A model generated the notes under the pieces. That model was not told the origin of the DNA and ran no database searches. It worked only from the letters and a program-made list of their open reading frames with translations. Position numbers and translations under genes: made by a program. DNA of 64,000 bases from Candidatus Micrarchaeota archaeon. GTDB taxonomy: Archaea; Micrarchaeota; Micrarchaeia; Micrarchaeales; CABMGC01. The stretch lies in assembly GCA_021818995.1 (NCBI GenBank), contig JAKASP010000001.1, positions 157,381-221,380 of the forward strand, read 5' to 3'. This document shows positions 8,065-45,243 of this stretch, in pieces; position 1 is the stretch's first letter; each line of letters begins with the position of its first letter.

Positions 8065-8152
8065 CCTTCTGCTTCTTCTCCCGATTATAAATATCTTGCG
8101 TACGGGCGCGCCTGCCTGACAATCCTATTAATTGCATTTGCGATATGCTAGC

Positions 8153-8986
8153 ATGCTGAGGATCGGCTACCATGTCTCGATAAGCGGGAGCATGGACCTT
8201 GCCCTCGACCGGGCGCGAGAGATAGGGTGTACGTGCGTGCAGGTCTTTCCGAGCAATCCGCGCAGTTGGAGCGCGAGGGAGATGCAGGAAGGCGAGGCTG
8301 AAAGGTTCAGGGCTAAGCAGAAGGCGTATAACATAAGCCCTGTCTTCGTGCACATGCCGTACCTACCGAACCTCGCATCGCCCAAGGAAGACGTTTACAG
8401 GAAATCGATCGCGGCTATGATCGAAGCGCTGGAGAGGTGCAACGCGCTCGGCGCCAAATATCTGATAGTGCATCTCGGCAGCCACCTGGGATCAGGGGTC
8501 GAGGCCGGGAGGGAGCGCGTCTCTGCCGCGATAAACGAGGTCGAGAAGCACATGGGCAACGCGACGATACTCCTTGAGAACGAGGCTGGACAGAGGAACA
8601 GCGTTGGCTCAAAGCTGGACGAGCTGACCGACATATACAACAGGATAGAGCACAAGCATGTGGGCTTCTGCCTCGACACCTGCCACGTCTTCGCGGCAGG
8701 ATACGACATAAGGAAGGAGGAGGTGGCCAGGGAGGTGGTCGAGACTCTGGGCATAGACCGGATAGGCTGCATACACCTCAATGACGCAAAGCATCCACTG
8801 GGCTCTGGGCTGGACAGGCACGCTGACATAGGCTTCGGCCGTATAGGCAAGAAGGGCTTCGAGGAATTCTTCTCGCTGCCTGGGCTGAGGGAGAAGCCGA
8901 TGATACTCGAGACTCCGCTTGTGGAGACGCCGAAGGACGCTGCAGGCGAGCTCTCGATGGTGAGGAAGATGCTGAACTACGCCTAG
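8153..8986 (+). CDS. nfo: endonuclease IV (AP endonuclease)
   Basis: MLRIGYHVSISG...VFVHMPYLPNLASP...YLIVHLGSH...ILLENEAG...GFCLDTCHVFAAGYD...IHLNDAK...GSGLDRHADIG match the Nfo TIM-barrel metal-ligand motifs. The ORF-track start at 8132 is TTG, so the ATG at 8153 is preferred. Confidence 0.9.
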   Translation: MLRIGYHVSISGSMDLALDRAREIGCTCVQVFPSNPRSWSAREMQEGEAERFRAKQKAYNISPVFVHMPYLPNLASPKEDVYRKSIAAMIEALERCNALGAKYLIVHLGSHLGSGVEAGRERVSAAINEVEKHMGNATILLENEAGQRNSVGSKLDELTDIYNRIEHKHVGFCLDTCHVFAAGYDIRKEEVAREVVETLGIDRIGCIHLNDAKHPLGSGLDRHADIGFGRIGKKGFEEFFSLPGLREKPMILETPLVETPKDAAGELSMVRKMLNYA

Positions 8987-9633
8987 AGCGTGTCGCAGCC
9001 GAGGGCCAGTCTGCCGCCGAGGCCGTTTGGCATCATTGCGAAGTAGAACGTCTGCTCGAATCCTGTCCTGGGCGCGCTCCTCATCTGCATCGTGGTCATG
9101 CTTGCTATGAAGATGTACTGCACCTTCTCTGTTCCTGCCTTGGTCTCTGAGCTGAGCGCCAATTCCATGTTCCTGGCCAGGGTGTCGGTGATGTCCTTTG
9201 CGGAGTTCAGCGCCTGCTCGGAGCGAAGGCCGCGGCCAAGCATGCGGAGCTCGTCGCGCTCCAGTCCCATGCTCCCCTCGCATTCGCACTTCTCGAGCCT
9301 AAGCTCATAGTCGTGCATGAAGTTGACCATCGTCGCCTCGGTCTGCATCCTTATCCTGTTGCCGCTTACCCCGAAGTAGCTGACCTTCACACGGATCTGG
9401 TCAGGCCTCATTATCTCCGTGTTCGCAAGCACGAATGCGCCTATGTTTAGGCCGTGCATCTTCAGCTCGTCCTTTGTGTAGATGAGCGCCGGGGTCGTCT
9501 CCTTCCTCTGCGCCTCTATCAATTCCATCAGGTCGCTCCGCGCGAGGTAGCGCTCCCTGCGCACCGCGTCAGTGAGCAGTATGCTGCCTCCGCTTGGCAT
9601 CGAGAGGTCCTTTGTCAGCTCATTTCCCTTCAT
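8983..9633 (-). CDS. hypothetical protein, paralog of 9642-10313
   Basis: 216-aa ORF, 8 nt downstream of its paralog. Shared pieces include L-L-T-D-A-V-R-R versus I-M-S-D-A-A-R-K near the N-terminus, IRVKVSYF versus IEVKAAYD, and YIFIASM versus YLFVFKK. No family recognised. Confidence 0.55.
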   Translation of the reverse strand: MKGNELTKDLSMPSGGSILLTDAVRRERYLARSDLMELIEAQRKETTPALIYTKDELKMHGLNIGAFVLANTEIMRPDQIRVKVSYFGVSGNRIRMQTEATMVNFMHDYELRLEKCECEGSMGLERDELRMLGRGLRSEQALNSAKDITDTLARNMELALSSETKAGTEKVQYIFIASMTTMQMRSAPRTGFEQTFYFAMMPNGLGGRLALGCDTL

Positions 9634-9641
9634 AAGAACAC

Positions 9642-10313
9642 TCAGCTGCGGAGCACGCCCAGCTCCCCGCGTTGCGGCTTCTGCTTCTTGAAGACGAAGA
9701 GGTACTCCTGCCTGCCGGCCTCGTTCTCATTCTCCGATTCCGATGCCAAGGCGTAACCGTAGAGCTCCCTTCCTATGCCCCTCGCTACTGTCTTTGCCAT
9801 CAGCTCCACTGGATCTTCGCTGGAATCGAGCATCGTGCTGGAAAGCTCCGTCTTGTCCACCACTGTAGTCGGCAGGTATGTGGTACTGTCGAGCTCTTGG
9901 TGGGTGTCGACGAATACTGCCTCGACCCACAGGTCCTCGATCTTGACCGTGCAGTTCTTCTCGTTGCTGACCATCATGGGAGAGAAGCTCATGCACATTC
10001 CTGTCTGCACGGTTCTGCCATCGCCGTTGTGCGGGTCGGAAGGGTCGTACGCTGCCTTGACCTCTATGCTGTCGGCATCCATGACATAAGCTATGTGCCT
10101 CGCTATCGCGGCCCCTATCGCCCTCCCCTGCTCCCTGAGCCTGTCCTGGGTCGTGACCTCCTGCGGCACATTGGCCCCTGCGGTAAGCAGAGCCGAGTAC
10201 ATGCGCCCTAGCTCCTTATCACTCACCTTGAAGAAGTCCTTGCGCGCTGCGTCGCTCATTATTATTGGCAGCATAGCCCTGCCGTTCGCGCGCCTGAGGC
10301 TCTCCCCGGCCAT
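9642..10313 (-). CDS. hypothetical protein, paralog of 8983-9633
   Basis: 223-aa ORF with protein-like composition. The antisense and overlapping ORFs (9672-10211 and others) are Arg/Leu/His-biased. No family recognised. Confidence 0.55.
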   Translation of the reverse strand: MAGESLRRANGRAMLPIIMSDAARKDFFKVSDKELGRMYSALLTAGANVPQEVTTQDRLREQGRAIGAAIARHIAYVMDADSIEVKAAYDPSDPHNGDGRTVQTGMCMSFSPMMVSNEKNCTVKIEDLWVEAVFVDTHQELDSTTYLPTTVVDKTELSSTMLDSSEDPVELMAKTVARGIGRELYGYALASESENENEAGRQEYLFVFKKQKPQRGELGVLRS

Positions 10314-10417
10314 CTAAGCATCTGAAAAAGCTTGGGCGATAGCATTTAAATAAATTGGTTTTAGCTAAGTTGCTCGGTGCCAGCGGGTACCCTTGCCTTA
10401 TGAGAAGTCGGATTCCT

Positions 10418-11071
10418 TCAGTTCCACCAGTTCTCGTCAAAGATGGGAACGTCGAGTGGCAGCGTCTTCGCCTCGTCGCCCTTGAGCTTTCCGTTCCACG
10501 CGACGGCCCTGTTGCCCATCATCTGGTATATGGGCCCTGAATAGTCGAGCGTGGTCTTGAGCGTGTAGCCTATCGTTGCGTAGGTTATGCCAGTAGTGTG
10601 AAGCACGTCCACGAGCAGAAGCGGTGCTTGCGCATTCCTCTCCAGCACGCGTATGTGCTCGCTCATGGCGAAAATCTTCTCGGTCATGCTAGTTCGGTCT
10701 GAGAAGTGCCGGCGCGCGTGCAGTCCAGAGGAGTAGCCTATCAGAACGTTGCGCTTCGCGATGCCCGCAGCCTCAAGTGGCGGCAGTATCCATCTCTGGT
10801 TGTATGCGCCGGTCATCACAATGGCGACAGTCATGTCCTGCGGCAGTTCCCTGTGGTTGAGCGGCTTCGGTACGAAAGGCTCGGTCAAGTCCTGCATCAC
10901 CAGCGCCGTATCCATGCTCTTCCTGAATGCGGCTTTGATTGCATTGCGCGACTCGCGTGATGTTTCAGGGTCGAAGAGCGTGACCCACGCCGATACTTCG
11001 TTGTCAAGCTGGCCGTTGCTGTATAGGCCAGGCGTGTGGCCTTTCCGTGTGTTGGCTTCAGAGTGTAGCAT
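10418..11071 (-). CDS. hypothetical protein with a phosphoribosyltransferase-like loop
   Basis: 217 aa. The segment APLLLVDVLHTTGITYATI resembles the PRPP-binding loop of type I PRTases (hydrophobic x4-D-D-x-x-x-T-G-x-T), but with only one Asp. This is weak, motif-level evidence. Confidence 0.45.
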   Translation of the reverse strand: MLHSEANTRKGHTPGLYSNGQLDNEVSAWVTLFDPETSRESRNAIKAAFRKSMDTALVMQDLTEPFVPKPLNHRELPQDMTVAIVMTGAYNQRWILPPLEAAGIAKRNVLIGYSSGLHARRHFSDRTSMTEKIFAMSEHIRVLERNAQAPLLLVDVLHTTGITYATIGYTLKTTLDYSGPIYQMMGNRAVAWNGKLKGDEAKTLPLDVPIFDENWWN

Positions 11072-11085
11072 AGGATCGACTTTGT

Positions 11086-11553
11086 TCAGCCCCAGACGCA
11101 GACTCGCTTACCGCTCCTTTTGAGAACGCGCAGCGATTCGTTATCGCGCTCGTAGCCGTTAGCAGACACAACCTTGTCAAACGCCCCGTCCACGAACGGC
11201 AGGCGCCTGTTGTCCGCCACTATGAAGTTTGGTTTTGGCTTGCTCTCACGGCGCAGCACTCCTGAGAGCCGCTTGTTCGACTTTATCAGGTGCCTCTGCC
11301 AGTCGACCAGGACGAGGTCTCCCTGGTTGTAGAGCCTGTGGAACGGGAATGCGCCTGCGCCGAGCTCGAGCGTCAGGTCCCTGCTGGACGGCTTGGCCTC
11401 GTCCCTTATCTTGATGTATGCTGATACCCTGTCTACGAGTATGGGAGGCAGGACTACTGAGAGGAGCGGCCATACGGCCCCGTGGAAGAGCTTTGATGGC
11501 CTATCGTGGACCCTGTTGTCCACTACCCTGCACTCCAGCGCCAGTTCTGACAT
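11086..11553 (-). CDS. minimal class I SAM-dependent methyltransferase-like protein
   Basis: 155 aa. LELGAGAFPF is motif I-like, LVLVD resembles the acidic end of beta-2, and IVADNRRLPFVDGAFDKVVS plus LRVLKRSGKRV resemble the typical Methyltransf_11-like core. It lies 14 nt upstream of the PRTase-like gene. Confidence 0.5.
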   Translation of the reverse strand: MSELALECRVVDNRVHDRPSKLFHGAVWPLLSVVLPPILVDRVSAYIKIRDEAKPSSRDLTLELGAGAFPFHRLYNQGDLVLVDWQRHLIKSNKRLSGVLRRESKPKPNFIVADNRRLPFVDGAFDKVVSANGYERDNESLRVLKRSGKRVCVWG

Positions 11554-11609
11554 AATTCTGTGATTCTTTTCCGGCTTATTTAAGCGTTGACGTTATCGTT
11601 CGTTAGGTA

Positions 11610-12365
11610 TCAAGGATTGTACGATGAGTAGCGCTCCCGCTTTTCCCTCTCCTCGTTGGCGATGTCCCTGCGCTCCTTATCTTCAGCTGTGCGATCGCTT
11701 GCGACACCCATAGCAAACGATATTGCTGCAGTTCTCTGGTCCTCTTTCTCTTTCTCCTTCTGTTGGCGCCGTCTGTCTTTCTCAGCTTCGAGCTCTCTTC
11801 TGGCTTCAAGTATTTTGGATAGCTCTTCTGAGTTTCTTTTTTCTACAAGCTTAACCTCGCGGTCCAGTATCTCGAGCATCTTGTCTTGATCAATTCCAGG
11901 CCTGTCAATGAAGGCGAACCTGGCTTTGAGTATAGTGCGGATCTCAATTGCGTGAAGCCAGAGATAACCTTCGTTGTAACCGAAGTCTTTAGCATGATAG
12001 TGTGGTTCTGCCGCGAGTGCAAATTCTTTTGATTCTACGGCACCAGCTGAAACTATCAGCCGTTGTTCCAACGGCAGTTCGTTAAATGCAGGTTCATACG
12101 CTTTTTTTGCAGCCAGAGTTATTTTTACCTCAGTACTTTCCCCCGAGTCCGTTCTGTCTATTCTATAGAAGCCGTTAGCCGACGGTATGGATGAATCCCT
12201 AGATACCCATATGGATTGGTCTTTAAGCATTTTGAACTCTTCGGGTCTACGCAACCAGCCGACTAGCTCGGGGAGTGTTATCAGAGATGCGTTGCTCTCT
12301 CTTAGCACCGCTTCTAGCGAAGAGAACGGGATTGGAAGTTTGGATACTTTTACGACCATAGACAT
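11610..12365 (-). CDS. hypothetical protein, short member of a tandem paralog pair with a charged tail ending YNP
   Basis: 251 aa. The N-terminal roughly 170 aa align clearly with residues 128 onward of the upstream gene (KLPIPFSSLEAVLRESNASLITLPELVGWLR / RVPIPFSSVESVLRAGSASLITLPELLNWLR). The C-terminal E/R/K-rich tail ends ...YSSYNP. Confidence 0.6.
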   Translation of the reverse strand: MSMVVKVSKLPIPFSSLEAVLRESNASLITLPELVGWLRRPEEFKMLKDQSIWVSRDSSIPSANGFYRIDRTDSGESTEVKITLAAKKAYEPAFNELPLEQRLIVSAGAVESKEFALAAEPHYHAKDFGYNEGYLWLHAIEIRTILKARFAFIDRPGIDQDKMLEILDREVKLVEKRNSEELSKILEARRELEAEKDRRRQQKEKEKEDQRTAAISFAMGVASDRTAEDKERRDIANEEREKRERYSSYNP

Positions 12366-12428
12366 GCCTTCTTCTGATCATCTTCAATTTTTGTTCATTA
12401 AAGCGTTGGTGTGATAGCGCGTCAGACA

Positions 12429-13547
12429 TTATGGGTTGTACGGCGGGTGGTAGTACTCGTCGATCTCTCGCTTTTGTCTCTCTTCCTTTGCGGTCTCCCT
12501 GCGCGCCCAGTCATCGTTGAACCTGTCTGCAATAATTTCGCGATCTCGCTGTCTTGCCGCGTCTTCCGCTCTTCTTTCATACGCCTCCCTGCGACTCTCG
12601 CGCTCTTCAGCTTTGCGAGTTTCCTCCTCTTCTGAAAGTGTAACCTCTCGTTCTAGCACCCTGAGCATCCTATCCTGAGCGGGGCCGGGCTTGTCAACAA
12701 AGGCAAATTTGGCTTTGCCATATACTTCTGTTCCGAGCGAGAAATACCCATGAGGGATTAAGTTTTTCCTGAAGATGCCTATGTTTCTAAGGGAATAGTT
12801 TGGCTTAAGCGAGAGCGGAAATTCTTTGGAAGAGTTAACGATTTTCAGAACCTCCAATCGCTGCTCTAAGGGCAGGCGGAGGAATCCGTTCTGGTAGCTC
12901 TTGTCTGAAATCTTTGTTATGCGCACTTCAGGAATCTCCTCTGTGTCTATCCTGTCTATTCTGAAGAAACCAGGAACCGAAGGTATTGATGAGTCCCTGG
13001 CCACCCATATGGCCTGATCGTTGAGAGCTTCAAGATCTTGGGAGCTGCGCAGCCAGTTTAGCAGCTCGGGAAGCGTTATAAGAGACGCACTTCCCGCTCT
13101 CAGTACGGACTCAACAGAAGAGAATGGAATCGGGACCCTTGATAGCGTTATGGTTTTTGTTTGCATACGCGCTTCGCCTTCCCTATTTGAGCCACGGAGG
13201 TATGGTGCCGAGGCGCCTGCCGGTAGGCCTTGTGTAACATCAATCTCCTTGTGCTGCACATCCACGGCTATAGCAGTGGATCTTATCAGCCGGTTCAAAG
13301 CGCTTAACTGGTCTTGAAGTCCGTCTATTACCGAGTCCGTTTTCAATATGCCCTGCTTCTTCGCGATTGCTGCGGCTTTGAAGATGGTAGTTGTTTCGTC
13401 GTTGATTTCCCGTATAGATTCGTTGATGTGTTGCGTGTATTTCGATCTTTGCGAGCTCTTGAGCGCTTCCAGTCGTTTTATGTTTGCAGAGGTTCTTTCT
13501 CTAAGACACGATGTGAGCTCTGCTTCGCTGAAACCACCTAGCATCAC
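12429..13547 (-). CDS. hypothetical protein, long member of the tandem paralog pair
   Basis: 372 aa. It has an extra roughly 125-aa helical N-terminal extension, then the shared domain, then an E/R/K-rich tail ending ...YHPPYNP. The DNA is visibly more AT-rich than its neighbours. Confidence 0.6.
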   Translation of the reverse strand: MMLGGFSEAELTSCLRERTSANIKRLEALKSSQRSKYTQHINESIREINDETTTIFKAAAIAKKQGILKTDSVIDGLQDQLSALNRLIRSTAIAVDVQHKEIDVTQGLPAGASAPYLRGSNREGEARMQTKTITLSRVPIPFSSVESVLRAGSASLITLPELLNWLRSSQDLEALNDQAIWVARDSSIPSVPGFFRIDRIDTEEIPEVRITKISDKSYQNGFLRLPLEQRLEVLKIVNSSKEFPLSLKPNYSLRNIGIFRKNLIPHGYFSLGTEVYGKAKFAFVDKPGPAQDRMLRVLEREVTLSEEEETRKAEERESRREAYERRAEDAARQRDREIIADRFNDDWARRETAKEERQKREIDEYYHPPYNP

Positions 13548-13647
13548 CTTCTTCAGGAATGCGGTTCTGTCTTCTCTGGAAAGCTCTTTTTCAGGAACAT
13601 TCTCACCTATCGTGCTTGGTTTTGTCTGTTTTTAAGGATTGGTGTTA

Positions 13648-14622
13648 TCAGCTGGTTTCGGAGGCGGTGTTGTTCACGTGCGTGAGCACAGGCACCGAGC
13701 TCATGTTGTAGTACACCTGTATGTGCGCTGTCTGCAGCGGAGTCGCCTGGCTGCCCGGATGGTATGCGACCCAGAGTATGCCGTTGAAGGGGGCCGATGC
13801 GCTGCTTACGCCGAAGCACGGCAGGTCCTTGGCGCTTATGGGCGACGATGCGGTTATGGAAGTGCCATATTGCCCCTGACTGAAGGTGCCGTTCGCCTGC
13901 AGGTAGTAGAACTGGCTCTTCGGCGGCGCTGCGAGGCTGAAGGTGTTCGTGCACGCCAGGTCGAGGTTGTAGAGCGTGTCGTTGGTGTCGTTAGATGAGA
14001 GCGTGAAGGAGAGGTTCGCCGGGGCTGAGAGCACGGGATTCTGGCACTGGAACGGCTGGTCGAGCTCTATGGTTGAGCAGCCCGAGTAAGTCAGTATCGT
14101 AGTTGTGAGAGTGCTGGTGGTGACGGTCGTGGCTATTGTGCTCGTGGTGTTGAGTGATGTGGTTGTCGTGCTCGCCGGCGCTATCTGCGCCCCGCCATTT
14201 ATCCCGAAGAATACCAGCGCACTGACTATCGCTATTATCGCTATCGCGAGCAGGTAGACGTTCTGCTCGATTCTGCGCCTCTGGCCCCTCTTCATGTTGA
14301 AGATTATGTACAGGGTGAGGAGCGCGAAGATCAGGTTGAAGGTGAGCTCCGCGATGCTGATGGTTCCGGTGAACACGAAGATCACGGAGAGGATTGCGTA
14401 GCCGGCCGCGAATGCGAGCTGCTCGTCGACAAGCGGGGCCACAAGGCCCACGACCACTATCACGAGCGCGAGGCTTGACAGCGAGGCTATTCCGGTGAGA
14501 GCGATGATGCCCGTTCCCTGGAGCAGTTCGATCAGCTGGCTGATGAATGCGATGAACAGGCCGGCGGCGAACTCCTTGTAGCTCTCCTGCATTCCGTGCT
14601 TCATCCTGCTTGGTGCCTTCAT
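13648..14622 (-). CDS. polytopic membrane protein with a Thr-rich linker and an extracellular sequon-rich domain
   Basis: 324 aa with about five N-terminal hydrophobic helices. A linker ASTTTTSLNTTSTIATTVTTSTLTTT follows, and then a Cys-containing domain with many N-x-S/T sequons. Confidence 0.6.
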   Translation of the reverse strand: MKAPSRMKHGMQESYKEFAAGLFIAFISQLIELLQGTGIIALTGIASLSSLALVIVVVGLVAPLVDEQLAFAAGYAILSVIFVFTGTISIAELTFNLIFALLTLYIIFNMKRGQRRRIEQNVYLLAIAIIAIVSALVFFGINGGAQIAPASTTTTSLNTTSTIATTVTTSTLTTTILTYSGCSTIELDQPFQCQNPVLSAPANLSFTLSSNDTNDTLYNLDLACTNTFSLAAPPKSQFYYLQANGTFSQGQYGTSITASSPISAKDLPCFGVSSASAPFNGILWVAYHPGSQATPLQTAHIQVYYNMSSVPVLTHVNNTASETS

Positions 14623-14650
14623 GTAATGCGTCGCCTGTTACGGTGTTTGT

Positions 14651-16180
14651 ATGATGTGTGCTAATAAAAAGGTTATAGTATTGGGAAAAGTCCATCGAGA
14701 GTTGCGCCTCGCTAGGCGCTTTGGTCTTTTGAGATGGCACTGGAAGAGGAAGTGGCTCTTCAATATGATGAGGTTAAATCCGGAAAGGAACCTGAACTCG
14801 CACATAATGATAACTGGCGAGAGCGGCGCTGGTAAGAGCAACGTCTGCAAGCTCATACTGCGGCAGCTGGCCAATCAGGGAGCGGGCTTCGTTGTGCTGG
14901 ACCCCCATGCTGAATACGTGGAGCACGCGAAGGAGATGCATGCTGAGGTCTACGACGCGAGCATGCACTCTGTGAACCTCTTTGACCTAGACGGCTTGAC
15001 AGAAAGGGAGAGGACGGCAGAGATAACTGCGATGCTGCGAAGGGTGCTGCACCTGGGCGAGGTGCAGGCGAGCACGCTCTACAGGTGCATAGACTACACC
15101 TACTGGGTTAGCATGAGGAATGGTTCAGTTCCGAACATGCACAGCCTGCTCTACACGATAAAGGTCTTCGGGCGCAAAGCCAGGAGCAAGCCAGAGGCGA
15201 ATATGCTTGACTCGCTCGAGAAACGCCTGCTGGTCATAGCAGGAGAAAACTTCGCAAGGAACGTGAGCGTAGCCAAGATCCTGCAGGGCAGGAGCATCTT
15301 CTCCCTGCACGGGCTACACAGCGCGGAGGCGCAGAGCATATACATGGAGGGCATGCTCAGGAAGATCTACACCAGCGTGCTTGCGGCCAGGGTGAAGCGC
15401 AGGTTCTATATCGTCATAGACGAGGCGGAGAAGCTGCAGGGCAGCCCTGTGGTTGGAAGGTTCGTAGCGGAGGGAAGGAAGTACGGCATAGGGATGATCG
15501 CGATCTCGCAGCGCGCAAAGGCGCTGGACAAGGAGATACGCAGCAACGCTGCTACGATGATTACATTTACGCAGCGTGAACCGGAGGAGCAGAACTACGT
15601 GGCGAACATGATAGCAGCAGGTACGGAGTACAATAGGTTCATCGAAGTGAGGAAGGCGCTGAGGGAACTGCCGAGAGGGTACGCGCTCGTGCAGGAAGCG
15701 AGGGAGAGGAACGCGAAGATGGTGAAGTGCCTGAGGTTCAAGGCCAGGGAGAGGGACCCGAGCGGCGCGATAATGGTGATGGCGAGGAAGGTCGTGGGCA
15801 AGCGGGAGCTACTTGAAAAACTCAGGCATGATGGCTTCTCCGCAGAACAGGCGATTGGAGCGATCACGGAGCTTGTGAGGTCCGGAAAGCTGAAGTACCA
15901 CGTTGTGACCGAGGCGCCGTATGCAGGAACCTGGTACATCGCAATGCCGAGGAACAGCGCAGAGCACGACGTAATGGTGAGCCTGATAAGCAGGTACCTG
16001 AGCGAGAACGGGATTGCGAATAGGATACACAACAACTCCTACGGCCCTGATGTGATCGCATACAAAGATGGCAGGAAGGTTGCGGTCGAGTACGAGACCG
16101 GAAAGAAAAATACCTGGGACACGGAGCGCATGCTTGCGAAGAGGGTAGAAAAATATCCTGAGGTGATTGTTCTGCGTTGA
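14651..16180 (+). CDS. HerA/FtsK-superfamily P-loop ATPase (DUF87/AAA_10-like) fused to a C-terminal wHTH and a PD-(D/E)xK-like module
   Basis: Walker A is ITGESGAGKSN, Walker B is FYIVIDEAEKL, and GIGMIAISQR...ATMITF is also present. The last roughly 120 aa are ...AIGAITELVRSGKLKYHVV...SAEHDVMVSLISRYLSENG...GPDVIAYKDGRKVAVEYETGKK. The true start may be ATG 14765, because a TATA-like aaaaaggttatagtatt sits at about 14664-14680. Confidence 0.75.
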   Translation: MMCANKKVIVLGKVHRELRLARRFGLLRWHWKRKWLFNMMRLNPERNLNSHIMITGESGAGKSNVCKLILRQLANQGAGFVVLDPHAEYVEHAKEMHAEVYDASMHSVNLFDLDGLTERERTAEITAMLRRVLHLGEVQASTLYRCIDYTYWVSMRNGSVPNMHSLLYTIKVFGRKARSKPEANMLDSLEKRLLVIAGENFARNVSVAKILQGRSIFSLHGLHSAEAQSIYMEGMLRKIYTSVLAARVKRRFYIVIDEAEKLQGSPVVGRFVAEGRKYGIGMIAISQRAKALDKEIRSNAATMITFTQREPEEQNYVANMIAAGTEYNRFIEVRKALRELPRGYALVQEARERNAKMVKCLRFKARERDPSGAIMVMARKVVGKRELLEKLRHDGFSAEQAIGAITELVRSGKLKYHVVTEAPYAGTWYIAMPRNSAEHDVMVSLISRYLSENGIANRIHNNSYGPDVIAYKDGRKVAVEYETGKKNTWDTERMLAKRVEKYPEVIVLR

Positions 16181-16204
16181 AGCGCGTTGGACTGCAAATC
16201 ATCC

Positions 16205-16930
16205 TTAGCTTACAAATTCTTTTATCAGATCGGCCACAGCACCCGCGTGCGCGTAGTGCGCAACATGACCTGCGTCCTGCACAATCTCCAGCACACTACC
16301 TTTGATGTAATTGTTGAACATCTTCGCGTACTTGACATCCAGCGTCTTGTCATCAGAACCCCAGATTACCAGTGCTGGCTTGACTATGGAGCTAAGGCCC
16401 TCCTTGGTCAGGTACTCGCTCGCGGGCTGGTCGTTTGCTGAGCTTCTTATAACCCAGTCTCTGGGGTTGAAGATAAGGGCTTCTGCGATCCATTTCTCCT
16501 TCCATGCCTTTGCGTCTGTCTTCTCTATGTCATCGAAGATCTCTTTGAGGCCCATCGCATCCTCGAGTATTATGCCGTCTCCCTTGTAGTTGCCCTGCGC
16601 GATCAGCGCCGCTACCCAACCGCCGTAGCTGTGCCCGAAGATGCAGCTTTCCTGCAGGTCCAGGGATTGCATCAGTTCTTTCACCGCCTGTGCCTGCTTG
16701 CCAACGGTGTACTGGATCCTTGGTGCGTCCGACTCTCCGTGGCCAAGCAGATCCACGAGATAGACGCACAGCTCATCGGGCAGCTGCTCTGCCAACCTCG
16801 AAAATGACTTGGTGCTCGCCCCGAACCCGTGCAGGAATACTATCTTCTTGCCGTCGGTGCGGTGGCGCTTGCAGTGCAGCGTGCCCAGGCTGGTCTGCAC
16901 GCTTATATCTTCGAGATCCTCGTAGCGCAT
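16205..16930 (-). CDS. alpha/beta-fold hydrolase
   Basis: FLHGFGAS resembles the oxyanion HG motif, GHSYGG is the nucleophile elbow, and there is a C-terminal DAGHVAHY (catalytic His). Confidence 0.8.
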   Translation of the reverse strand: MRYEDLEDISVQTSLGTLHCKRHRTDGKKIVFLHGFGASTKSFSRLAEQLPDELCVYLVDLLGHGESDAPRIQYTVGKQAQAVKELMQSLDLQESCIFGHSYGGWVAALIAQGNYKGDGIILEDAMGLKEIFDDIEKTDAKAWKEKWIAEALIFNPRDWVIRSSANDQPASEYLTKEGLSSIVKPALVIWGSDDKTLDVKYAKMFNNYIKGSVLEIVQDAGHVAHYAHAGAVADLIKEFVS

Positions 16931-38350: not shown

Positions 38351-39382
38351 TCATTTCTCCTTCTTCTTCGTCTCTTTTCTCTTTATGACCAGCTTGACCG
38401 AGCCAGTGCCCAGGGGTATCTGCTTTCCAACGAGTATGTTCTCGGTAACTCCGCGCATGTAGTCTATCTGGCCGAAGGCCGCGGCGTTGATCAGGTGCTT
38501 GACAGTTTCCTCGAAAGCCGCCTTTGCGAATACTGATTCCTTCTTGCCGACAAGGCCGTGCCTTCCTATGCTCTGGAGCGTGCCGTCCGCAGTCATAGCG
38601 TCTGCGATGAGCGAGATGTGCCTGTCGTTCACAGATATGTCCTGGTCCTCCAGCGTCTTCTTCAGCTCCAGGGCCAGTGTGTTCCTTGCAGCTTCAACTC
38701 CGAAGACCCTGTACATCGCGAAGAGGTCGTTCGTGTAGATCTTGCCGGGGTCCACGCCCTCTACCTGCATCACAGGCTCGATGTTGCTGCCGGCGGCCTC
38801 AACATAGAACTCTCCGCCCTTTTCCTGCGCGACCATTGCTTTGCCGGCGCCCTCTATTCCGTTGACAATCGCCTTTGTTATCTTGACGGTCACCGCGCGC
38901 ACGTCCTTCAGGTTCTTCGTGTGCGTGTTGACTATTATGTTCCCGTGCTCGCCCACCTTCGTCTCCACTCCCAACTCCTTGGCGAGTCTCGCAGCTGCCT
39001 GCCTGGCAGTGAGGTCGACAGCCTGCATTGACTGCTCGTTAAGTATCACGAGTATCTTGCCGCTCGCGAAGTTCTCTGCCACGCGCTTCATTATGCTCCT
39101 CATCTTGATCTCGCTTATCTTCTTAGCGACCTCGTCAGCTTTAGCGAAGCTCTTCGAGTAAGATTCCTTTAGATGGATGCGCATTATCGGGGACGATGGC
39201 ATCTTCTTGGCGTCGAGCAGCTCTATTATCCTTGGAAGGCCGGACGTGGCGATCGTAGCCGCGACTCCTGCAAGGTGGAACGTCCTGAGCACCATCTGCG
39301 TGCCAGGCTCTCCGAGCGATTGCGCTGCTATGACTCCCACCGGTTCTCCGGCTTGAACGTTATACTCCTGGTCCTTTGCCAT
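38351..39382 (-). CDS. rpoA2: DNA-directed RNA polymerase subunit A''
   Basis: [27 protein letters not shown] starts the protein. It is the last gene of the rpoH-B-A operon, 2 nt after A'. Confidence 0.95.
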
Positions 39383-39384
39383 GT

Positions 39385-41934
39385 CTATTCCTTCTTCTGC
39401 TTTGCGAAGCTCACCCTTGTCGGGTCTATGCCGTCGCCTCCGTATATGGTCTCTATCACGTTGTTGTTGACGTCCCTGACGCTGTTGTCGTGCGTCACGT
39501 AGTAGTCCTGGAGCGCGTTCGCGAGCCTTCTCTGCAGGTATCCGCTCCTCTGCGTGAGCAGGCCCTTCTGTATGACTGTGCCCCTGCCTCCCACAGCGTG
39601 CATTATCATCTCTATAGGCGTAAGTCCGTCGGAGTAGCTGCTGCCTACGAAGCCCCTCGCCTCTGCGCTGCTATCATTCCTGGGTATGTGCGGCACGACC
39701 CTGTTTGTGTAGTATCCGCGCTTTATCCTGCCACCTTCCCTTGTTGCCTGCTGCCCGAGAAACATGCTTACCTGCTCGAGGTTGAGCACGTTGGCCCTGG
39801 CCCCGGATGTTGCCATGAGCATCGCGAAGTTTGAGCTGCTCGTGTTCTTGACAAGCATCTGTATCGCCTTCCCCCTCGCGAGGTCCAGCTCCACCATGAT
39901 CATCTGCTCCAGCGACTGCCTGAGCGTGAGTCCGAGGAGCGGCTCAAGCTTTTTGCTCTTGTACTGCGCGATCAGCTCCTTGACCTTGCCCTCGGTCTCC
40001 GCTATCATCTTCTCCTTCTCCTTCCTCATCTCGTCTGTGAGCAGGTAGTCCTTCACTCCTATGGTGACACCTGAGAGGGTCGCATATGCGTATGCGAGCC
40101 TTGACGATGTCGCCAGGAACTTCTTCAGCTCCTCGAATCCGCACTGCATCGCTATCGCAGCGAAGAGCTTGTTGGATCCGCCGGCGGCGTACGCCTTCTT
40201 GTTTATCACTCCAGACACCAGCTCGCTGTCCTTGATCTTCAGCACGTCGTTGCCCGACTGCGATTCGAAGTTGAGGCCCTTAGGCAGAAGCATCGAGAAG
40301 ATTGCCTTCCCGCTGTATGTTCCGTCCCTCTCTGCCTTCGGCAGCTCCCTTATGCCTGCTGCGCCGAGCAGGTACTCTGCTTCCTCGAGCTCTAGGGACG
40401 TGCCGTCCTGCGTAAGCATGTAGAGTCCGATGACCCCGTCCTCTCCGTTCGCGATTATCACGTTGCCGTCCCTGGGTGAGAAGATCTGGTTCTGGACAGC
40501 CATGAGGTACTTGGCCTCGGCCTGGGCCTCGAGCGTCTGCGGTATGTGCAGGTTCATCTCGTCTCCGTCGAAGTCTGCGTTGTACGGGGCAGTCGCCGGG
40601 TATGTTATTCGGAAGGTCTTGCCAGGCAGCACCTTGACCCTGTGTGCCATTATGCTTATCCTGTGGAGCGACGGCTGCCTGTTGAAGAGCGCTATGTCGC
40701 CGTCCTGCAGCTGCCTCTCGAGTACGTAGCCTGCCTTTATCTCCTTGAGCAGCTCCTCCTTGTTCGTGTCAAGTATTCGCTTGCGCTTGCCGTCCTGCGC
40801 GACTATGTTTATCACCATCGGGTACTCCGTGCGCTCGAGCAGCTTCTTCGCAGCTTCGAGGTTCCACTCGGTTATGTAGAACGGCACTGTCAGCTTCTCC
40901 GCTATAGCTTGAGGCACCCCTACCTCGTCTATGTCTATTGCGGGATCGACGCTGATGACAGTTCTTGCTGAGTAGTTGACCCTCTTTCCCGAGAGGTTGT
41001 ACCTGAAACGGCCCTCCTTGCCCTTCAGCCTCTGCGCGATGGTCTTGAGCGCCCTCCCGCTCCTGTGCCTTGCGGGCGGTATGCCGCTGGTCTCGTTGTT
41101 GAAGTACGTGGTGACGTGGTACTGGAGCAGCTCCCAGAGGTCGTCTATGATTATCTGAGGCGCGCCCGCGTTTATGTTCTGCTCTAGCCTCTGGTTGATC
41201 CTCATTATGTCCACGAGCTTGTGCGTTAGGTCGTCCTCGCTCCTCTCTCCTGTCTCCAAGGTTATGCTGGGCCTCACGTCCACTGGAGGCACCAGGAGCG
41301 AATTCAGTATGAGCGCTTCGGGCCTGCTCGTCTTTGGGTCAACGCCTATCAGCTTCAGGTCGTCGTCGCTAACCTTCGCGAGCATGTCGCGTATCTCGTC
41401 AGGCTTGAGCCTGCGCTCTCCGAGGTAGAAGTATGTGGGCATGGAGAACTTGAGCTTCTCCTGCACCGTCTGGCAGTGCGGGCACTTCTTCACGCTCTTA
41501 AGCTTCTTCAGCATGTCCTGCTCAGAGTGCTTGTCGGCCGATGCCTCTGCCGGGGTGGTCTCAGGTGCAAGCTCGCGCTCCATCTCCTCCTTGAAGACCC
41601 CGATCTGGTCGTTGTTCAGCAGGATCCTGTGGCACTTCTGGCACGTGGCCTGCAGCAGCATATTGATTATCTTCGCGAACTCGGAATGGATCACAGGGCG
41701 CACGAGCTCAATGTGGCCGAAGTGGCCGGGGCAGGTCTTCGCCCTACCGCCGCACGTCTTGCACACGAGTCCTGGGTCTATGACCCCGAGCCTCTGGTCC
41801 AGCAGGCCCCCGTCTATCGGGTAGCCGTCCTCGTTGTACGTGTCTGGCACTGTGAGCTTCGCCACGCTGAGCTTGCGTATCTGCTCCTGGGAGAAGATCC
41901 CGAACTTTATCTGCTTGATCACTTCTGCTTGCAT
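39385..41934 (-). CDS. rpoA1: DNA-directed RNA polymerase subunit A'
   Basis: 849 aa. It has zinc motifs [16 protein letters not shown], the active site [12 protein letters not shown], and RQPSLHR. Confidence 0.97.
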
Positions 41935-41936
41935 GC

Positions 41937-43766
41937 CTATTCCTCCATTCCAACCTGCGGCCTGATGTGCAGGCTCTTTATCTCGTCAAGAAGCAGCTTG
42001 AAAGCGTAGCTTATCTCCACTTCCGAGAGCTTGTTGCTGTTGCACAGCGGGCAGACGTCCACGCGCTTCGCGTAGTCTCTGTATCCTATGCTTCCGCACT
42101 CCTTGCAGATCAGCACCGTGGCCTTGTCGCTCTGGTCGAGCATTCGCTCCTTCAGCAGAAGGCTCGCTCCGTATGCGACGAGCACGTCTCGTTCCATCTC
42201 TCCGAACCTGAGGCCTCCGAGCCTCGCCTTGCCCTCTGTCGGCTGGTGCGTGAGTATCTGCACCGTTCCCCTTGACCTGACCTGCATCTTGTTGCTGACC
42301 ATGTGGTGCAGTCTGTTGTAATAGACAACTCCTTGGAAGAGCTTTGCCTTGAAAGGCCTTCCTGTTACGCCGTCGAATAGGGTCTCCTCTCCGTACTTCT
42401 CGAATCCGTGGCCCTCGAGTATCTTCGCGTATTCTGACAGACGCTCGCTCCCCTTCTCTGAGAAGGCTGTGCCGTCCATCCTTGTGCCTTTGAGAGATCC
42501 GGCCTTCGCTCCCAAGGTCTCAAGCAGATGGCCGAAGGTCATTCTGCTTGGTATTCCGTGCGGGTTGAGCATGAGGTCCGGCACTATTCCCTGCTCTGTG
42601 AACGGCATGTCCGCGTGCGGCACCACAAGCGCCACGACTCCCTTCTGCCCGTGCCTGCTGCCGAACTTGTCCCCGGCTTCCGGCACGCGTATGCCCCTCA
42701 CCCTCACCTTGACTATCCTTGTAGCTCCTGGCGATTCTGTGAATATCACATCGTCGACGACGCCGCTCTCTCCCGGCTTCATTACTATCGAGTCGTCGCG
42801 TGTCTTCTCCTCAAGCCCTCCTGCGCCTATGCTCTCCTCGAGGAATCTCGGCGGCGCGACCTTGCCTATGAGCACGTCTCCCTCCTCCACAGTCATCTCT
42901 GGCTCTATGACACCGTCCTCGCTCAGCTTCGAGTACGCATGCTCGCCGAGGTAGCCCTCGGTTGTTGCGGGCGGAATCTTGAAGATGTCCTTCTGTCCTC
43001 CAGGGTATCTGCGCTCCTCATCAGAATAGGTCTTGTAGAACATGCTCCTTGCGAGGCCCCTGTCGACAGCTGCCTTGTTCAGGACCACGGCATCCTGCAT
43101 GTTATATCCATAGAAGGTGGAGAGTGCAACAACGAAGTTCTGCCCGGATGCGTGTTTGCCCAGCTTGAGCGCCTCGTAAGCTGCCGTGGTTACTATCGGC
43201 GCCTGCGGGTAGAAGAGTATGTACGCCCTCGACTCGAACCTGAGGTTGAAGTTAGTAGCATAAAGGCCCTGCGCCTGCTTGATGTAGCTTGAGAACATGA
43301 GGTGCCTCGGCGCGCTGTTCGTCTCTGGGAACGGGGCTGTGTTCGCTGTGAACCCAAAGATCGAGACCGGGTCAACTTCCAGGTGGGTCGTCTTCTCGCC
43401 TATGTCTGCTTCGGTCATGGCAACGAGCGCGTTCTCCTCCTCCTCAGCGTCGAGAAACTCGAGTATGCCGTTCCTTATCAGGTAGCCGAAGTCTATCTCC
43501 TTCTTCTCAAGCTTCTCGAAGAGCTCCTTTGTGAGCCTCGACTTGCCGTTCTCTACGATTATGTATGGCTTCCTGACCCTTCCGCGGTCAGTGTTTATGT
43601 GGACCTCGTTGAGCTTCTCAAGATAAGCGACGTTGACCTCTCCTGATATTACGCCCTTCCTCCTCGCCTCCTTCACTTCCTTTATGTAGGCAAATGGGTC
43701 TGCAACGTGGCCTATGGCCTTGCCGTTGAGGTGAACATAGCACTTTTCGCTTACCTTCTTCGCCAT
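41937..43766 (-). CDS. rpoB1: DNA-directed RNA polymerase subunit B' (C-terminal half of the split B)
   Basis: GDKFGSRHGQKGV, LRFGEMERD and the zinc ribbon CKECGS...CPLC are present. It is separated from B'' by 1 nt. Confidence 0.97.
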   Translation of the reverse strand: MAKKVSEKCYVHLNGKAIGHVADPFAYIKEVKEARRKGVISGEVNVAYLEKLNEVHINTDRGRVRKPYIIVENGKSRLTKELFEKLEKKEIDFGYLIRNGILEFLDAEEEENALVAMTEADIGEKTTHLEVDPVSIFGFTANTAPFPETNSAPRHLMFSSYIKQAQGLYATNFNLRFESRAYILFYPQAPIVTTAAYEALKLGKHASGQNFVVALSTFYGYNMQDAVVLNKAAVDRGLARSMFYKTYSDEERRYPGGQKDIFKIPPATTEGYLGEHAYSKLSEDGVIEPEMTVEEGDVLIGKVAPPRFLEESIGAGGLEEKTRDDSIVMKPGESGVVDDVIFTESPGATRIVKVRVRGIRVPEAGDKFGSRHGQKGVVALVVPHADMPFTEQGIVPDLMLNPHGIPSRMTFGHLLETLGAKAGSLKGTRMDGTAFSEKGSERLSEYAKILEGHGFEKYGEETLFDGVTGRPFKAKLFQGVVYYNRLHHMVSNKMQVRSRGTVQILTHQPTEGKARLGGLRFGEMERDVLVAYGASLLLKERMLDQSDKATVLICKECGSIGYRDYAKRVDVCPLCNSNKLSEVEISYAFKLLLDEIKSLHIRPQVGMEE

Positions 43767-43767
43767 C

Positions 43768-45243
43768 CTAATCCTCCTCTATCTTCCCAATGTCCTTGAG
43801 CTTGCTCTCGACCTGCTTCTCCTCGGCGCCGACGCTTATCTTCGCCATTATGGCGAGGTACTTCGTCAGGCCTACGTCGAGTCCCTCCGGTGTTTCCGAT
43901 ATGCAGATCTTGCCCCACTGCGTGCCGTGCACCTCCCTTGCATTGAAGTGCGGGTGCTTCTTCGCCAGCGGGCTCTTCACCCTGCGCAGGTTCGTGTAGG
44001 TGCTGATCAGATTGGTCCTGTCTAGGACCTGCGAGACTCCTGTCTGGCCCGCTACCCATGTGCCGGTGCCCATCGCGTATGAGATCTTCTCTGTCATCGT
44101 CTCGGGGCTGATTATCGTCGGTATGCTCAGCTTGCGGCCCCTTGCGCTCGCGCGCTCTATCTGGTACTTCACGTCCTTGACGAAGAACCTGAAGGCATAG
44201 GCGAAGAGCTCCTCCATTAGCTGGCCCGAGTACTTTACGCGCTTGTTCGAGTAGTGGTCCTTGTCGTCCTGAGGTGCAAGCCTGTTCGCGACCACACTCG
44301 CGCGCCTTGACATCTGCAGTATGTACCTGCCCTTGTCCTTCCTGTCCTCAGGTTTTGTGCCTATGTGAGGGAGCAGGTAGGTGTCGAGCTGCGTCTCGGC
44401 GCGCTTTATCTGGTACTCCTTCGCCTGGCCCGGCGCAGAGAGCTTGCCCAGCTCGAGGAGCGCGTCGCTGGGTCCGAGGTCCTTGGCCTCGCTCAGCTCT
44501 ATGTTGAGAAGCATGTCGTTCTTGTAAGAGAGCACGTCGCTCGCTGATGCTAGCATATCGCTCACCTGTATGCCGAGGGCGCGCAGGATCAGCACCATGC
44601 CGACTGCCTTGTGCAGCGTCGGGAACTCGACAGCGAAGACTCCGTTCTGGTTCCTCGAGACCACGGTCCTCGCCCTGAATCCCGGAGCCGTCGAGAAGAC
44701 CTTGCTCGTGGTCTCCGCCCCGCCCTTCTCCTTGCTCGTGATTATCCTGTTCGGCGCCAGGTCCTCAAGGCCTATAAGCACTCGCTCTGTTCCCTTGACC
44801 ACGAAGTACCCGCCTGGATCCTCGGGATCCTCACCGTTCTCGACAAGCTGGTTCTTTGTAAGCGTCCTGAAGTGGCAGAGGTTGCTCCTGACCACTATTG
44901 GAAGCTCGCCGATGAACACCTCGCCGTACGATGCTTCCTTCTCTATGCCCCTGATGACAGGCACGAACTCTAGGAACATGGGCGATGAGTACGTTAGGTT
45001 CCTGAGCCTGGCCTCGTTAGGCAGTATGCTCCTCCTTGAGCTGTCCGCCTCGATGACCGAAGGCTTGTCCAGTCTTATTTTTCCAAGCTTGAGCGAGAAT
45101 CCCTCAACGCTCGGCTCGATTGTCGCCTGCTGGTCTATTATCTTCTGAACGTCCTGCTCGACGAACCTGTTGAAGCTCTCGATCTGATGCTGGACCAGAG
45201 AGTTGGAACTGAGGTAAGATTCCAATATTATGTTCTTCCTCAT
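43768..45243 (-). CDS. rpoB2: DNA-directed RNA polymerase subunit B'' (N-terminal half of the split B)
   Basis: 491 aa with LVQHQIESFNRF, PNEARLRNLTYS and GYFVVKGTERV. It sits in the usual position between rpoH and B'. Confidence 0.95.
   Translation of the reverse strand: MRKNIILESYLSSNSLVQHQIESFNRFVEQDVQKIIDQQATIEPSVEGFSLKLGKIRLDKPSVIEADSSRRSILPNEARLRNLTYSSPMFLEFVPVIRGIEKEASYGEVFIGELPIVVRSNLCHFRTLTKNQLVENGEDPEDPGGYFVVKGTERVLIGLEDLAPNRIITSKEKGGAETTSKVFSTAPGFRARTVVSRNQNGVFAVEFPTLHKAVGMVLILRALGIQVSDMLASASDVLSYKNDMLLNIELSEAKDLGPSDALLELGKLSAPGQAKEYQIKRAETQLDTYLLPHIGTKPEDRKDKGRYILQMSRRASVVANRLAPQDDKDHYSNKRVKYSGQLMEELFAYAFRFFVKDVKYQIERASARGRKLSIPTIISPETMTEKISYAMGTGTWVAGQTGVSQVLDRTNLISTYTNLRRVKSPLAKKHPHFNAREVHGTQWGKICISETPEGLDVGLTKYLAIMAKISVGAEEKQVESKLKDIGKIEED

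Follow-up and report, generated by a model that had tools for sequence, protein, structure and literature searches.

A HerA/VirB4-clade ATPase carrying a winged helix and a restriction-fold nuclease tail, genetically linked to endonuclease IV in Micrarchaeota

We analyzed a stretch of 64,000 nucleotides (nt) from a Candidatus Micrarchaeota archaeon (GenBank assembly GCA_021818995.1, contig JAKASP010000001.1, positions 157,381 to 221,380 of the forward strand), here called the window, and in it an open reading frame (ORF) at 14651–16180 that encodes an FtsK-HerA-type ATPase with a C-terminal tail of two further domains. A preliminary description of this ORF, made from the letters of the window, had paired it with a divergently transcribed gene for a polytopic membrane glycoprotein and had raised DNA translocation and defense as possible contexts. 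We found instead that the conserved partner of the ATPase is endonuclease IV, encoded by nfo. Related loci numbered 86 (80 from species-representative genomes and 6 from metagenomes), which with the window gives the 87 loci over which conservation is reported. The features that carry the argument are as follows.

8132–8986, plus strand: nfo, endonuclease IV / deoxyribonuclease IV (TIGR00587, 246 bits against a cut-off of 129.65; PDB 4hno, E 9.8e-60)
14651–16180, plus strand: ATPase ORF, 509 amino acids (aa), a HerA/VirB4-clade ATPase, winged helix-turn-helix (wHTH) and PD-(D/E)xK nuclease domain (ORF list, 141 homologues, AlphaFold2 model)
14651–14785, plus strand: N-terminal region, a β-hairpin of ~45 aa with strands at 9–23, 26–33, and 39–42 (DSSP of the AlphaFold2 model)
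14786–15745, plus strand: RecA-like ATPase core, aa ~46–365, of the FtsK-HerA superfamily by Pfam, NCBIfam, Foldseek, and PADLOC
14816–14839, plus strand: Walker A, GESGAGKS, aa 56–63 (G56, K62, and S63 each in 87 of 87 loci)
15419–15424, plus strand: Walker B acidic pair D257-E258 within VIDEAE (E258 in 87 of 87 loci; position 257 D or E in 87 of 87)
15467–15487, plus strand: segment AEGRKYG, aa 273–279 (E274, R276, and K277 in 87 of 87 loci)
15758–15943, plus strand: wHTH, aa ~370–431, order H-(b)-H-H-b-b (AlphaFold2 tail model and Foldseek)
15953–16177, plus strand: minimal PD-(D/E)xK domain, aa 435–509, order alpha-beta-beta-beta-alpha-beta (model topology, Foldseek, and residue conservation)

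The full-length AlphaFold2 model of the 509-aa protein (predicted local distance difference test, pLDDT, 90.9) consists of a β-hairpin, a RecA-like core, and two C-terminal domains. The long N-terminal hairpin, which has no Pfam match, takes the place of a HAS-barrel and leaves only 45 aa ahead of the P-loop strand. G12, L18, W29, and W31 are conserved in an alignment of 33 homologues, and W29 and W31 recur in 80 and 86 of the 87 loci. Conservation of the first 38 aa and a shared starting point among the homologues favor a start at 14651, and the alternative start at 14765, which would lose exactly these residues, was rejected; the preliminary description had named both.

The core itself carries the two signatures of the HerA/VirB4 clade of the FtsK-HerA superfamily, a Walker A of the form GxxGxGK[ST] and a Walker B of the form hhhhDE, and matched three Pfam families above their cut-offs: DUF87/HerA central (51 bits against 23.2, E 2.7e-13), AAA_10 (45.7 against 27.5), and TrwB_AAD_bind (41.6 against 20.5). 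All NCBIfam matches were sub-threshold and aligned with the ATPase core alone, being to the Ced equivalog models CedD (NF053655; 69.5 bits against 600, E 2.3e-19) and CedB (NF041017; 43.4 against 700) and to two HerA models (NF040819, 52.8 bits against 970; NF040937, 48.6 against 800). By structure, the top Foldseek match of the core was the C-domain of DndH (7es4, E 7.5e-15, TMt 0.77), followed in order by SsoHerA (4d2i), VirB4 (4ag5/6), Thermococcus kodakarensis HerA, SIR2-HerA, TdpA, and TrwB, with a probability of 1.00 and E-values of 7.5e-15 to 1e-10 for the DndH C-domain, HerA, VirB4, TdpA, and TrwB. The best PADLOC model was mad8 of the MADS system (87 bits, E 3.6e-25, profile positions 26–299 of 314), a match that spans the generic ATPase core alone and comes from a model set without curated cut-offs; DndH (29 bits) and further HerA defense models were also matched. 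Neither a hydrophobic (transmembrane, TM) segment nor a VirB4-like N-terminal domain was found in the window protein. FtsK_SpoIIIE was not among its listed Pfam matches, and 56 of 64 family members matched that model below threshold (best E 8e-06). In addition, PHROG 2666 (“terminase large subunit”) matched aa 246–335 with 70 bits, which probably reflects generic similarity among FtsK-HerA packaging ATPases rather than a viral origin.

The tail (aa 361–509), modeled separately with a pLDDT of 94.4, divides into a wHTH and a minimal nuclease domain. In tail numbering the wHTH consists of helices 11–20, 24–33, and 38–51 and strands 55–59 and 66–70, and its Foldseek matches are PadR/MarR-type wHTH proteins (probability 0.97–0.99). 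The nuclease domain is built in the AlphaFold2 models from helix 437–452, strands 456–459, 468–472, and 475–481, helix 488–501, and strand 504–508 in protein numbering. Its Foldseek matches in the PDB were Hjc/Hje, FokI, R2 RLE, splicing endonuclease, VRR_NUC, HindIII, and Bax1, all with E-values above 1e-3; the Hjc/Hje matches (2eo0, 1ob8, 2wcw, 4tkd) had probabilities of 0.9–0.99 and root-mean-square deviations of 3.4–5.5 Å over 71–86 columns, and those to Bax1 (8gy8, 6p66, 6p4o) had probabilities of 0.63–0.80. In a viral structure library (BFVD) the tail matched VRR-NUC proteins and other nucleases, one of them at 4.5e-4. Taken over the PDB and BFVD, the matches supporting the nuclease fold had probabilities of 0.9–1.0. 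Pfam matches of the tail to AHJR-like (PF18743; 14.6–16.5 bits against 26.1) and Hjc (PF01870; 12.7 against 21.1) were sub-threshold, and in the PDB a sequence profile made from the tail gave only spurious low-complexity or helical matches.

Three strings mark the nuclease domain, namely NSAEHD (aa 435–440), GPDVIAY (aa 465–471), and VAVEYETGKK (aa 477–486), and in the model the canonical acidic positions fall where they should, with E438 at the start of the first helix, P466-D467 at the start of the second strand, and E480 and E482 on the third strand. H439, P466, D467, E480, Y481, E482, G484, and R498 are invariant in all 87 loci and E438 is present in 84. The position of the (D/E)xK lysine is thus held by an invariant glutamate, E482, and the lysine by which PD-(D/E)xK domains are defined is absent from it. 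The BamHI active site (D94, E111, E113) likewise has glutamate in place of lysine (ExE), so that the replacement is of a known kind and excludes neither the fold nor activity. K486, four residues past E482, is lysine in 79 loci and asparagine in 7, and K485 is variable; as a common residue that is not invariant, K486 could not be relied upon as an essential “migrated lysine”. We conclude that the tail is a wHTH followed by a minimal ExE-type PD-(D/E)xK nuclease domain, and that the predicted active sites of the ATPase and of the nuclease are both under strong purifying selection. In the window protein and the relatives nearest to it, the chain stops directly past the last nuclease strand (...EVIVLR; 16178–16205), and most family members extend 20–50 aa further with the consensus VVxNDxxxxxY...

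Much of the preliminary description of the protein was borne out. The divergent ORF pair and all quoted motifs (GESGAGKS, DEAE, and the tail strings) are present as stated, and the assignment to the HerA/FtsK superfamily with a very short N-terminal region agrees with the above-cut-off DUF87 match and the Foldseek matches of the core. The proposed wHTH and restriction-endonuclease-like tail are likewise supported by the tail model and by its Foldseek matches to wHTH proteins and nucleases; the fold of the tail and its acidic triad, on which that proposal had been staked beforehand, are both there. Its reading of an ExE variant holds for E480-Y-E482; the lysine spacing that it gave (ExE-x2-K) does not, since K486 lies at E482-x3-K and is not invariant.

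Homologues of the ATPase numbered 141; the best 120 of these share 42–100% identity, most are 510–590 aa long, and nearly all of those with a named source are labeled Micrarchaeota. From 1.84 billion protein representatives, a tail profile retrieved 129 proteins, nearly all of 520–600 aa with the tail at the C-terminus, and the carriers are nearly all DUF87/HerA/VirB4-type ATPases; the remainder comprise fragments, a 674-aa HerA_C form labeled Marsarchaeota, and forms of 740–1051 aa. The ATPase family is almost confined to Micrarchaeota. Two sister loci that share the tail, one for a compact 593-aa form (locus L087, 6001–7782) and one for the 674-aa form (L089, 6001–8025), are set among metabolic housekeeping genes, and the 674-aa protein combines a HerA_C match with an N-terminal extension of ~170 aa. 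A distantly related tail (E 5.6e-5) is found on a 1051-aa TraC/VirB4-like ATPase of Candidatus Burarchaeum australiense (L091, 8001–11156; CABMJK010000030.1). Genes for an integrase, TrbC, a type IV secretion system (T4SS) pilin, DNA methylases, and a type III-like restriction enzyme belong to the same element, which is apparently of a conjugative or Ted-like archaeal kind, with a nuclease-fold tail on its VirB4.

The genomic surroundings of the ATPase were compared by searching the window's neighboring proteins against the 86 related loci with tblastn and by grouping the ORFs of all loci into clusters. Upstream of the ATPase and on the same strand, nfo was found in 75 of the 86 related loci, and it was the sole neighbor family found in most of the 87; the clustering placed it immediately before the ATPase in 43 loci. 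Between the nfo stop and the ATPase start lie −8 to +115 nt in 40 of 69 non-redundant loci. The pairwise identities of the ATPase and of nfo also co-vary (Mantel r 0.70, a value reached in 0 of 999 permutations). These data show that the ancestral order was nfo then ATPase on one strand, with the ATPase directly downstream, and inheritance of the ATPase looks vertical. The gene is essentially single-copy per genome bin. Two bins each hold two nfo-ATPase loci (L074 and L075 in JAJZKQ01, with near-identical gene order; L063 and L069 in CAZCSE01, both with a c47-family ORF just downstream), and strain mixtures within the bins are a more likely cause than true paralogy. In 30 loci (e.g., L022, L026, L028, L030–L032, L039, L043, and L045) a gene of the ~190-aa family c2 directly precedes nfo in the same orientation, giving a conserved three-gene order of c2, nfo, and ATPase; c2 matched nothing in Pfam, in NCBIfam, or among PDB sequences and is absent from the window.

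The ATPase gene is located in the core chromosome. Genes in the window include those for MCM, proline dehydrogenase, RNA polymerase A and B subunits, PolB, ribonucleotide reductase, DnaK, and SRP54, and the GC content of the ATPase gene equals that of the flanking DNA. By Pfam, its downstream neighbors are an alpha/beta hydrolase and proline dehydrogenase, and the synteny of these two and MCM downstream of the ATPase is kept in nearer relatives. The alpha/beta hydrolase gene is convergent with the ATPase gene and ends 24 nt away (16178–16205). A HerA-Mre11-Rad50-NurA operon considered at 38351–45243 was rejected, the ORFs there being RNA polymerase subunits.

In the window, nfo and the ATPase are separated by a block of ORFs on the opposite strand that includes the membrane protein.

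8983–14622, minus strand: inserted block of seven orphan ORFs between nfo and the ATPase, membrane protein included, filling the 5,664-nt gap
11610–12365 (251 aa) and 12429–13547 (372 aa), minus strand: tandem paralogues, 42–45% identical
13648–14622, minus strand: membrane ORF, 324 aa, an orphan polytopic protein divergent from the ATPase

The membrane ORF, 28 nt from the ATPase ORF, has ~4–5 TM segments within aa 20–148 by hydropathy, a Thr-rich stretch at ~aa 150–176, and seven N-x-S/T sequons in its C-terminal domain. Its polytopic nature and Thr-rich stretch had been described correctly, the five helices given to it being at the upper end of our count. Its pairing with the ATPase is not conserved across genomes: a collection of 5.8 billion proteins contains just 4 clusters of the protein, and 3 of the 87 loci encode it, namely the window, L007 (an adjacent, divergent gene with 84% identity), and L015 (57%, at a distance of two genes), and a divergent multi-TM gene of any family lies upstream of the ATPase in 5 of 85 loci. 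No ORF of the block, the membrane ORF included, had a Pfam, NCBIfam, PADLOC, or PHROG match, where the PADLOC scan upstream of the ATPase covered six window ORFs and left out 11086–11553. We looked for a mobile-element origin of the block and found neither att-like repeats flanking it nor a PHROG or PADLOC match. The GC content is 0.503 at 12–14 kb, compared with ~0.55 elsewhere in the window. Both tandem paralogues end in ...YNP after a C-terminal tail rich in Glu, Arg, and Lys, and the 86 related loci yielded no ORF homologous to them. The closest relatives carry other sets of orphan genes at the same junction, which suggests that the space between nfo and the ATPase is an insertion hot spot filled differently in related genomes. 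The membrane glycoprotein is a recent lineage-specific insertion outside the ATPase system, and the main correction to the preliminary description is that the conserved partner is endonuclease IV; nfo was missed there because it lies 5.66 kb upstream in the window, outside the region that had been flagged.

Elsewhere in the window, Rfam matched a tRNA at 2082–2203 on the plus strand (122 nt, 55 bits), next to tRNA-His at 1953–2025 and with no ARAGORN call; this is probably an intron-containing archaeal tRNA.

Because of the linkage and co-divergence with nfo, the core-genome setting, and the conserved residues of both motor and nuclease, we tentatively read the ORF at 14651–16180 as an Nfo-coupled housekeeping DNA-repair motor-nuclease, with a probability of roughly 45%. 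The protein would be an ATP-driven motor on DNA, soluble and equipped with a DNA-binding domain and a nuclease of its own. As in other HerA-clade enzymes, a ring-shaped motor would move along double-stranded DNA (dsDNA), the wHTH may grip or recognize the substrate, and the tethered nuclease would cut the DNA delivered to it by the motor. Such an enzyme could act downstream of, or jointly with, endonuclease IV on nicked or abasic sites or broken DNA, where it might excise or resect a strand or flap, and it would then unite in one chain the kind of motor and nuclease that are separate proteins in machines like HerA-NurA or XPB-Bax1. A more specific form of this proposal is possible but doubtful, in which the protein is a lineage-specific single-polypeptide repair machine of Micrarchaeota and a few related lineages, a HerA-clade ring translocase with a built-in wHTH and ExE-type nuclease, genetically coupled to Nfo and performing either ATP-driven excision or resection from Nfo nicks or migration and resolution of branched DNA.

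Several observations weigh against a repair motor-nuclease. Although nfo adjacency hints at a functional link, it does not prove one: in the remaining 29 of the 69 non-redundant loci, 0.4–4.6 kb of varied genes lie between nfo and the ATPase, as do 5,664 nt in the window, and co-transcription is therefore not obligatory. Two sister subfamilies with the same tail (the 593-aa and 674-aa forms) do not adjoin nfo at all. For the ATPase core, the defense proteins mad8 and DndH are the top matches by profile and by structure, respectively; ring formation and dsDNA translocation are ascribed to the protein from its membership in the HerA clade, and nuclease activity is likewise presumed from the sequence of a domain in which the canonical motif lysine is missing. 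Finally, a literature search returned no description of the ATPase family or of an nfo–HerA-like pairing, in a coverage that did not extend to a 2004 FtsK-HerA survey that possibly names related fusions.

The matches to mad8 and DndH raise the question of whether the protein serves in anti-virus or anti-plasmid defense, with a HerA-type motor and a restriction-fold nuclease degrading foreign DNA in the manner of DndFGH, TdpAB, MADS, SIR2-HerA, or DUF4297-HerA. The further HerA and DndH models among the PADLOC matches, the appearance of SIR2-HerA, TdpA, and DUF4297-HerA after the DndH C-domain in the structural search, the fusion of motor and nuclease, and the variable DNA directly upstream of the ATPase in several lineages would all fit. 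However, the similarity to defense HerA proteins is restricted to the generic ATPase core, and no methyltransferase, Sir2, other mad or dnd gene, or PADLOC match was found among the scanned neighbors. A gene that is essentially single-copy, sits in a core-gene neighborhood next to nfo in 75 of 86 loci, co-diverges with nfo, and has nfo as its sole conserved neighbor gives no support to the defense-island setting that the preliminary description had mentioned, and we regard a defense role as unlikely. Somewhat less likely in our view is a processor of recombination intermediates, in which a ring motor branch-migrates Holliday junctions or stalled forks and paired Hjc-like nuclease domains resolve them, as with RuvB and RuvC or PINA and Hjc. 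The motor belongs to a dsDNA-translocase clade and its setting is a housekeeping one, and the fold of the nuclease is nearest to archaeal Hjc/Hje, with weak Pfam matches to AHJR-like and Hjc families. Yet none of the tail's PDB matches reached an E-value of 1e-3, the Pfam matches lie below cut-off, VRR-NUC, FokI, and R2-type nucleases are equally close in fold, and the lysine of the Hjc ExK is here a glutamate; this explanation also leaves the linkage to nfo unaccounted for.

Two other known uses of FtsK-HerA motors are improbable here. The order of motor and wHTH parallels the alpha/beta-gamma arrangement of FtsK, so that the wHTH might read DNA polarity as FtsK-gamma does while the nuclease acts at the division site in chromosome segregation or dimer resolution, and FtsZ genes do lie within a few kb of the ATPase in four loci (L005, L006, L064, and L076). 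These are only 4 of 87 loci, however, and three of them (L005, L006, and L064) share gene order; the FtsK_SpoIIIE matches, though found in 56 of 64 family members, are sub-threshold and weak, there is neither a membrane anchor nor a link to a Xer recombinase, and the conserved partner is nfo. The least probable account, in our estimate very much so, is the membrane-associated DNA translocation machine of Ced, Ted, or T4SS type that the preliminary description had seen in the divergent polytopic protein. Both CedD and CedB are import ATPases of the HerA clade (PMC11868833), the ORF has its best NCBIfam match in CedD, a polytopic membrane gene starts 28 nt away, and the distant tail relative in Candidatus Burarchaeum belongs to a TraC/VirB4-like ATPase of a T4SS-like integrated element. 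Every Ced feature that we compared is nevertheless lacking: the CedD and CedB scores are far below their cut-offs with only the ATPase core aligned, a TM helix and a VirB4-like N-terminal domain are both missing from the protein, the orphan membrane protein adjoins the ATPase in just 2 of the 3 loci that have it, multi-TM divergent genes are otherwise rare upstream, and the surroundings of the ATPase hold no conserved gene for a pilin or a VirB6/CedA-like protein. Non-conservation has already largely refuted this account.

If the repair link with endonuclease IV holds, the protein would represent a new accessory step in the processing of apurinic/apyrimidinic sites or nicks and a compact model enzyme for the handover of DNA from a ring translocase to a nuclease. 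Micrarchaeota are tiny symbiotic archaea and, like other DPANN archaea, carry very small genomes; a protein of ~500 aa that is retained throughout the phylum beside a base-excision-repair gene therefore likely has an important role. Known motor-plus-nuclease machines are made of separate subunits or belong to defense systems (HerA-NurA, XPB-Bax1, and DndH). Should the single-polypeptide machine prove real, cultured model archaea would offer no described counterpart of this repair route, which may have taken over from multi-protein pathways that disappeared as the genome shrank. For annotation, the label “ATP-binding protein / DUF87” on ~140 clusters conceals a three-domain enzyme, and the apparent membrane pairing in the window genome is an artifact of an insertion.

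Among known systems, HerA-NurA resembles the ORF in its HerA-clade ring-ATPase core (structural matches 4d2i, 9x1l, and 9x1m), in the use of a dsDNA motor that feeds a nuclease, and in its housekeeping repair context. The ORF differs in having no HAS-barrel and a HerA equivalog score far below cut-off (52.8 against 970), in a covalently fused PD-(D/E)xK nuclease where NurA is a separate dimer, and in neighboring nfo rather than nurA, mre11, or rad50, a comparison of neighborhoods in which NurA was not searched for genome-wide. The DndH C-domain, mad8, and other defense HerA proteins share with it a compact ATPase without HAS-barrel and give its best structure and profile matches, whereas the ORF has no other dnd or mad component or methyltransferase among its scanned neighbors, a fixed chromosomal position, and a wHTH-nuclease tail found in the profile search almost only in Micrarchaeota-type proteins. 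CedD and CedB, whose function is described together with the architecture of CedD in PMC11868833, are also HerA/VirB4-clade ATPases, CedD being the closest in NCBIfam; unlike them, the ORF has a nuclease tail and lacks a TM segment, a VirB4-like N-terminal domain, and a conserved CedA/CedE-like partner.

For the tail, Hjc/Hje, VRR-NUC, and AHJR-like nucleases share the ~75-aa alpha-beta-beta-beta-alpha-beta core with a glutamate on the first helix, an aspartate at the start of the second strand, and a glutamate on the third, but Hjc/Hje have a catalytic lysine where the ORF has an invariant glutamate (E-Y-E), the Pfam scores lie below cut-off, and the domain is the C-terminal part of a motor protein rather than a free dimer. 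BamHI offers the same PD...ExE variant with glutamate for lysine, although neither sequence similarity nor any specific structural similarity to it was detected, the restriction enzymes matched by Foldseek being HindIII and FokI. XPB-Bax1 is likewise a motor-plus-nuclease repair machine, and Bax1 is a weak match of the tail; its motor belongs to superfamily 2 rather than FtsK-HerA, and motor and nuclease are two separate proteins. The ORF is thus a member of the FtsK-HerA superfamily that is not HerA proper, CedB or CedD, FtsK, or a MADS or Dnd component, and what it adds to the literature that we searched is a motor of the HerA clade fused to a wHTH and an ExE restriction-fold nuclease, partnered with endonuclease IV.

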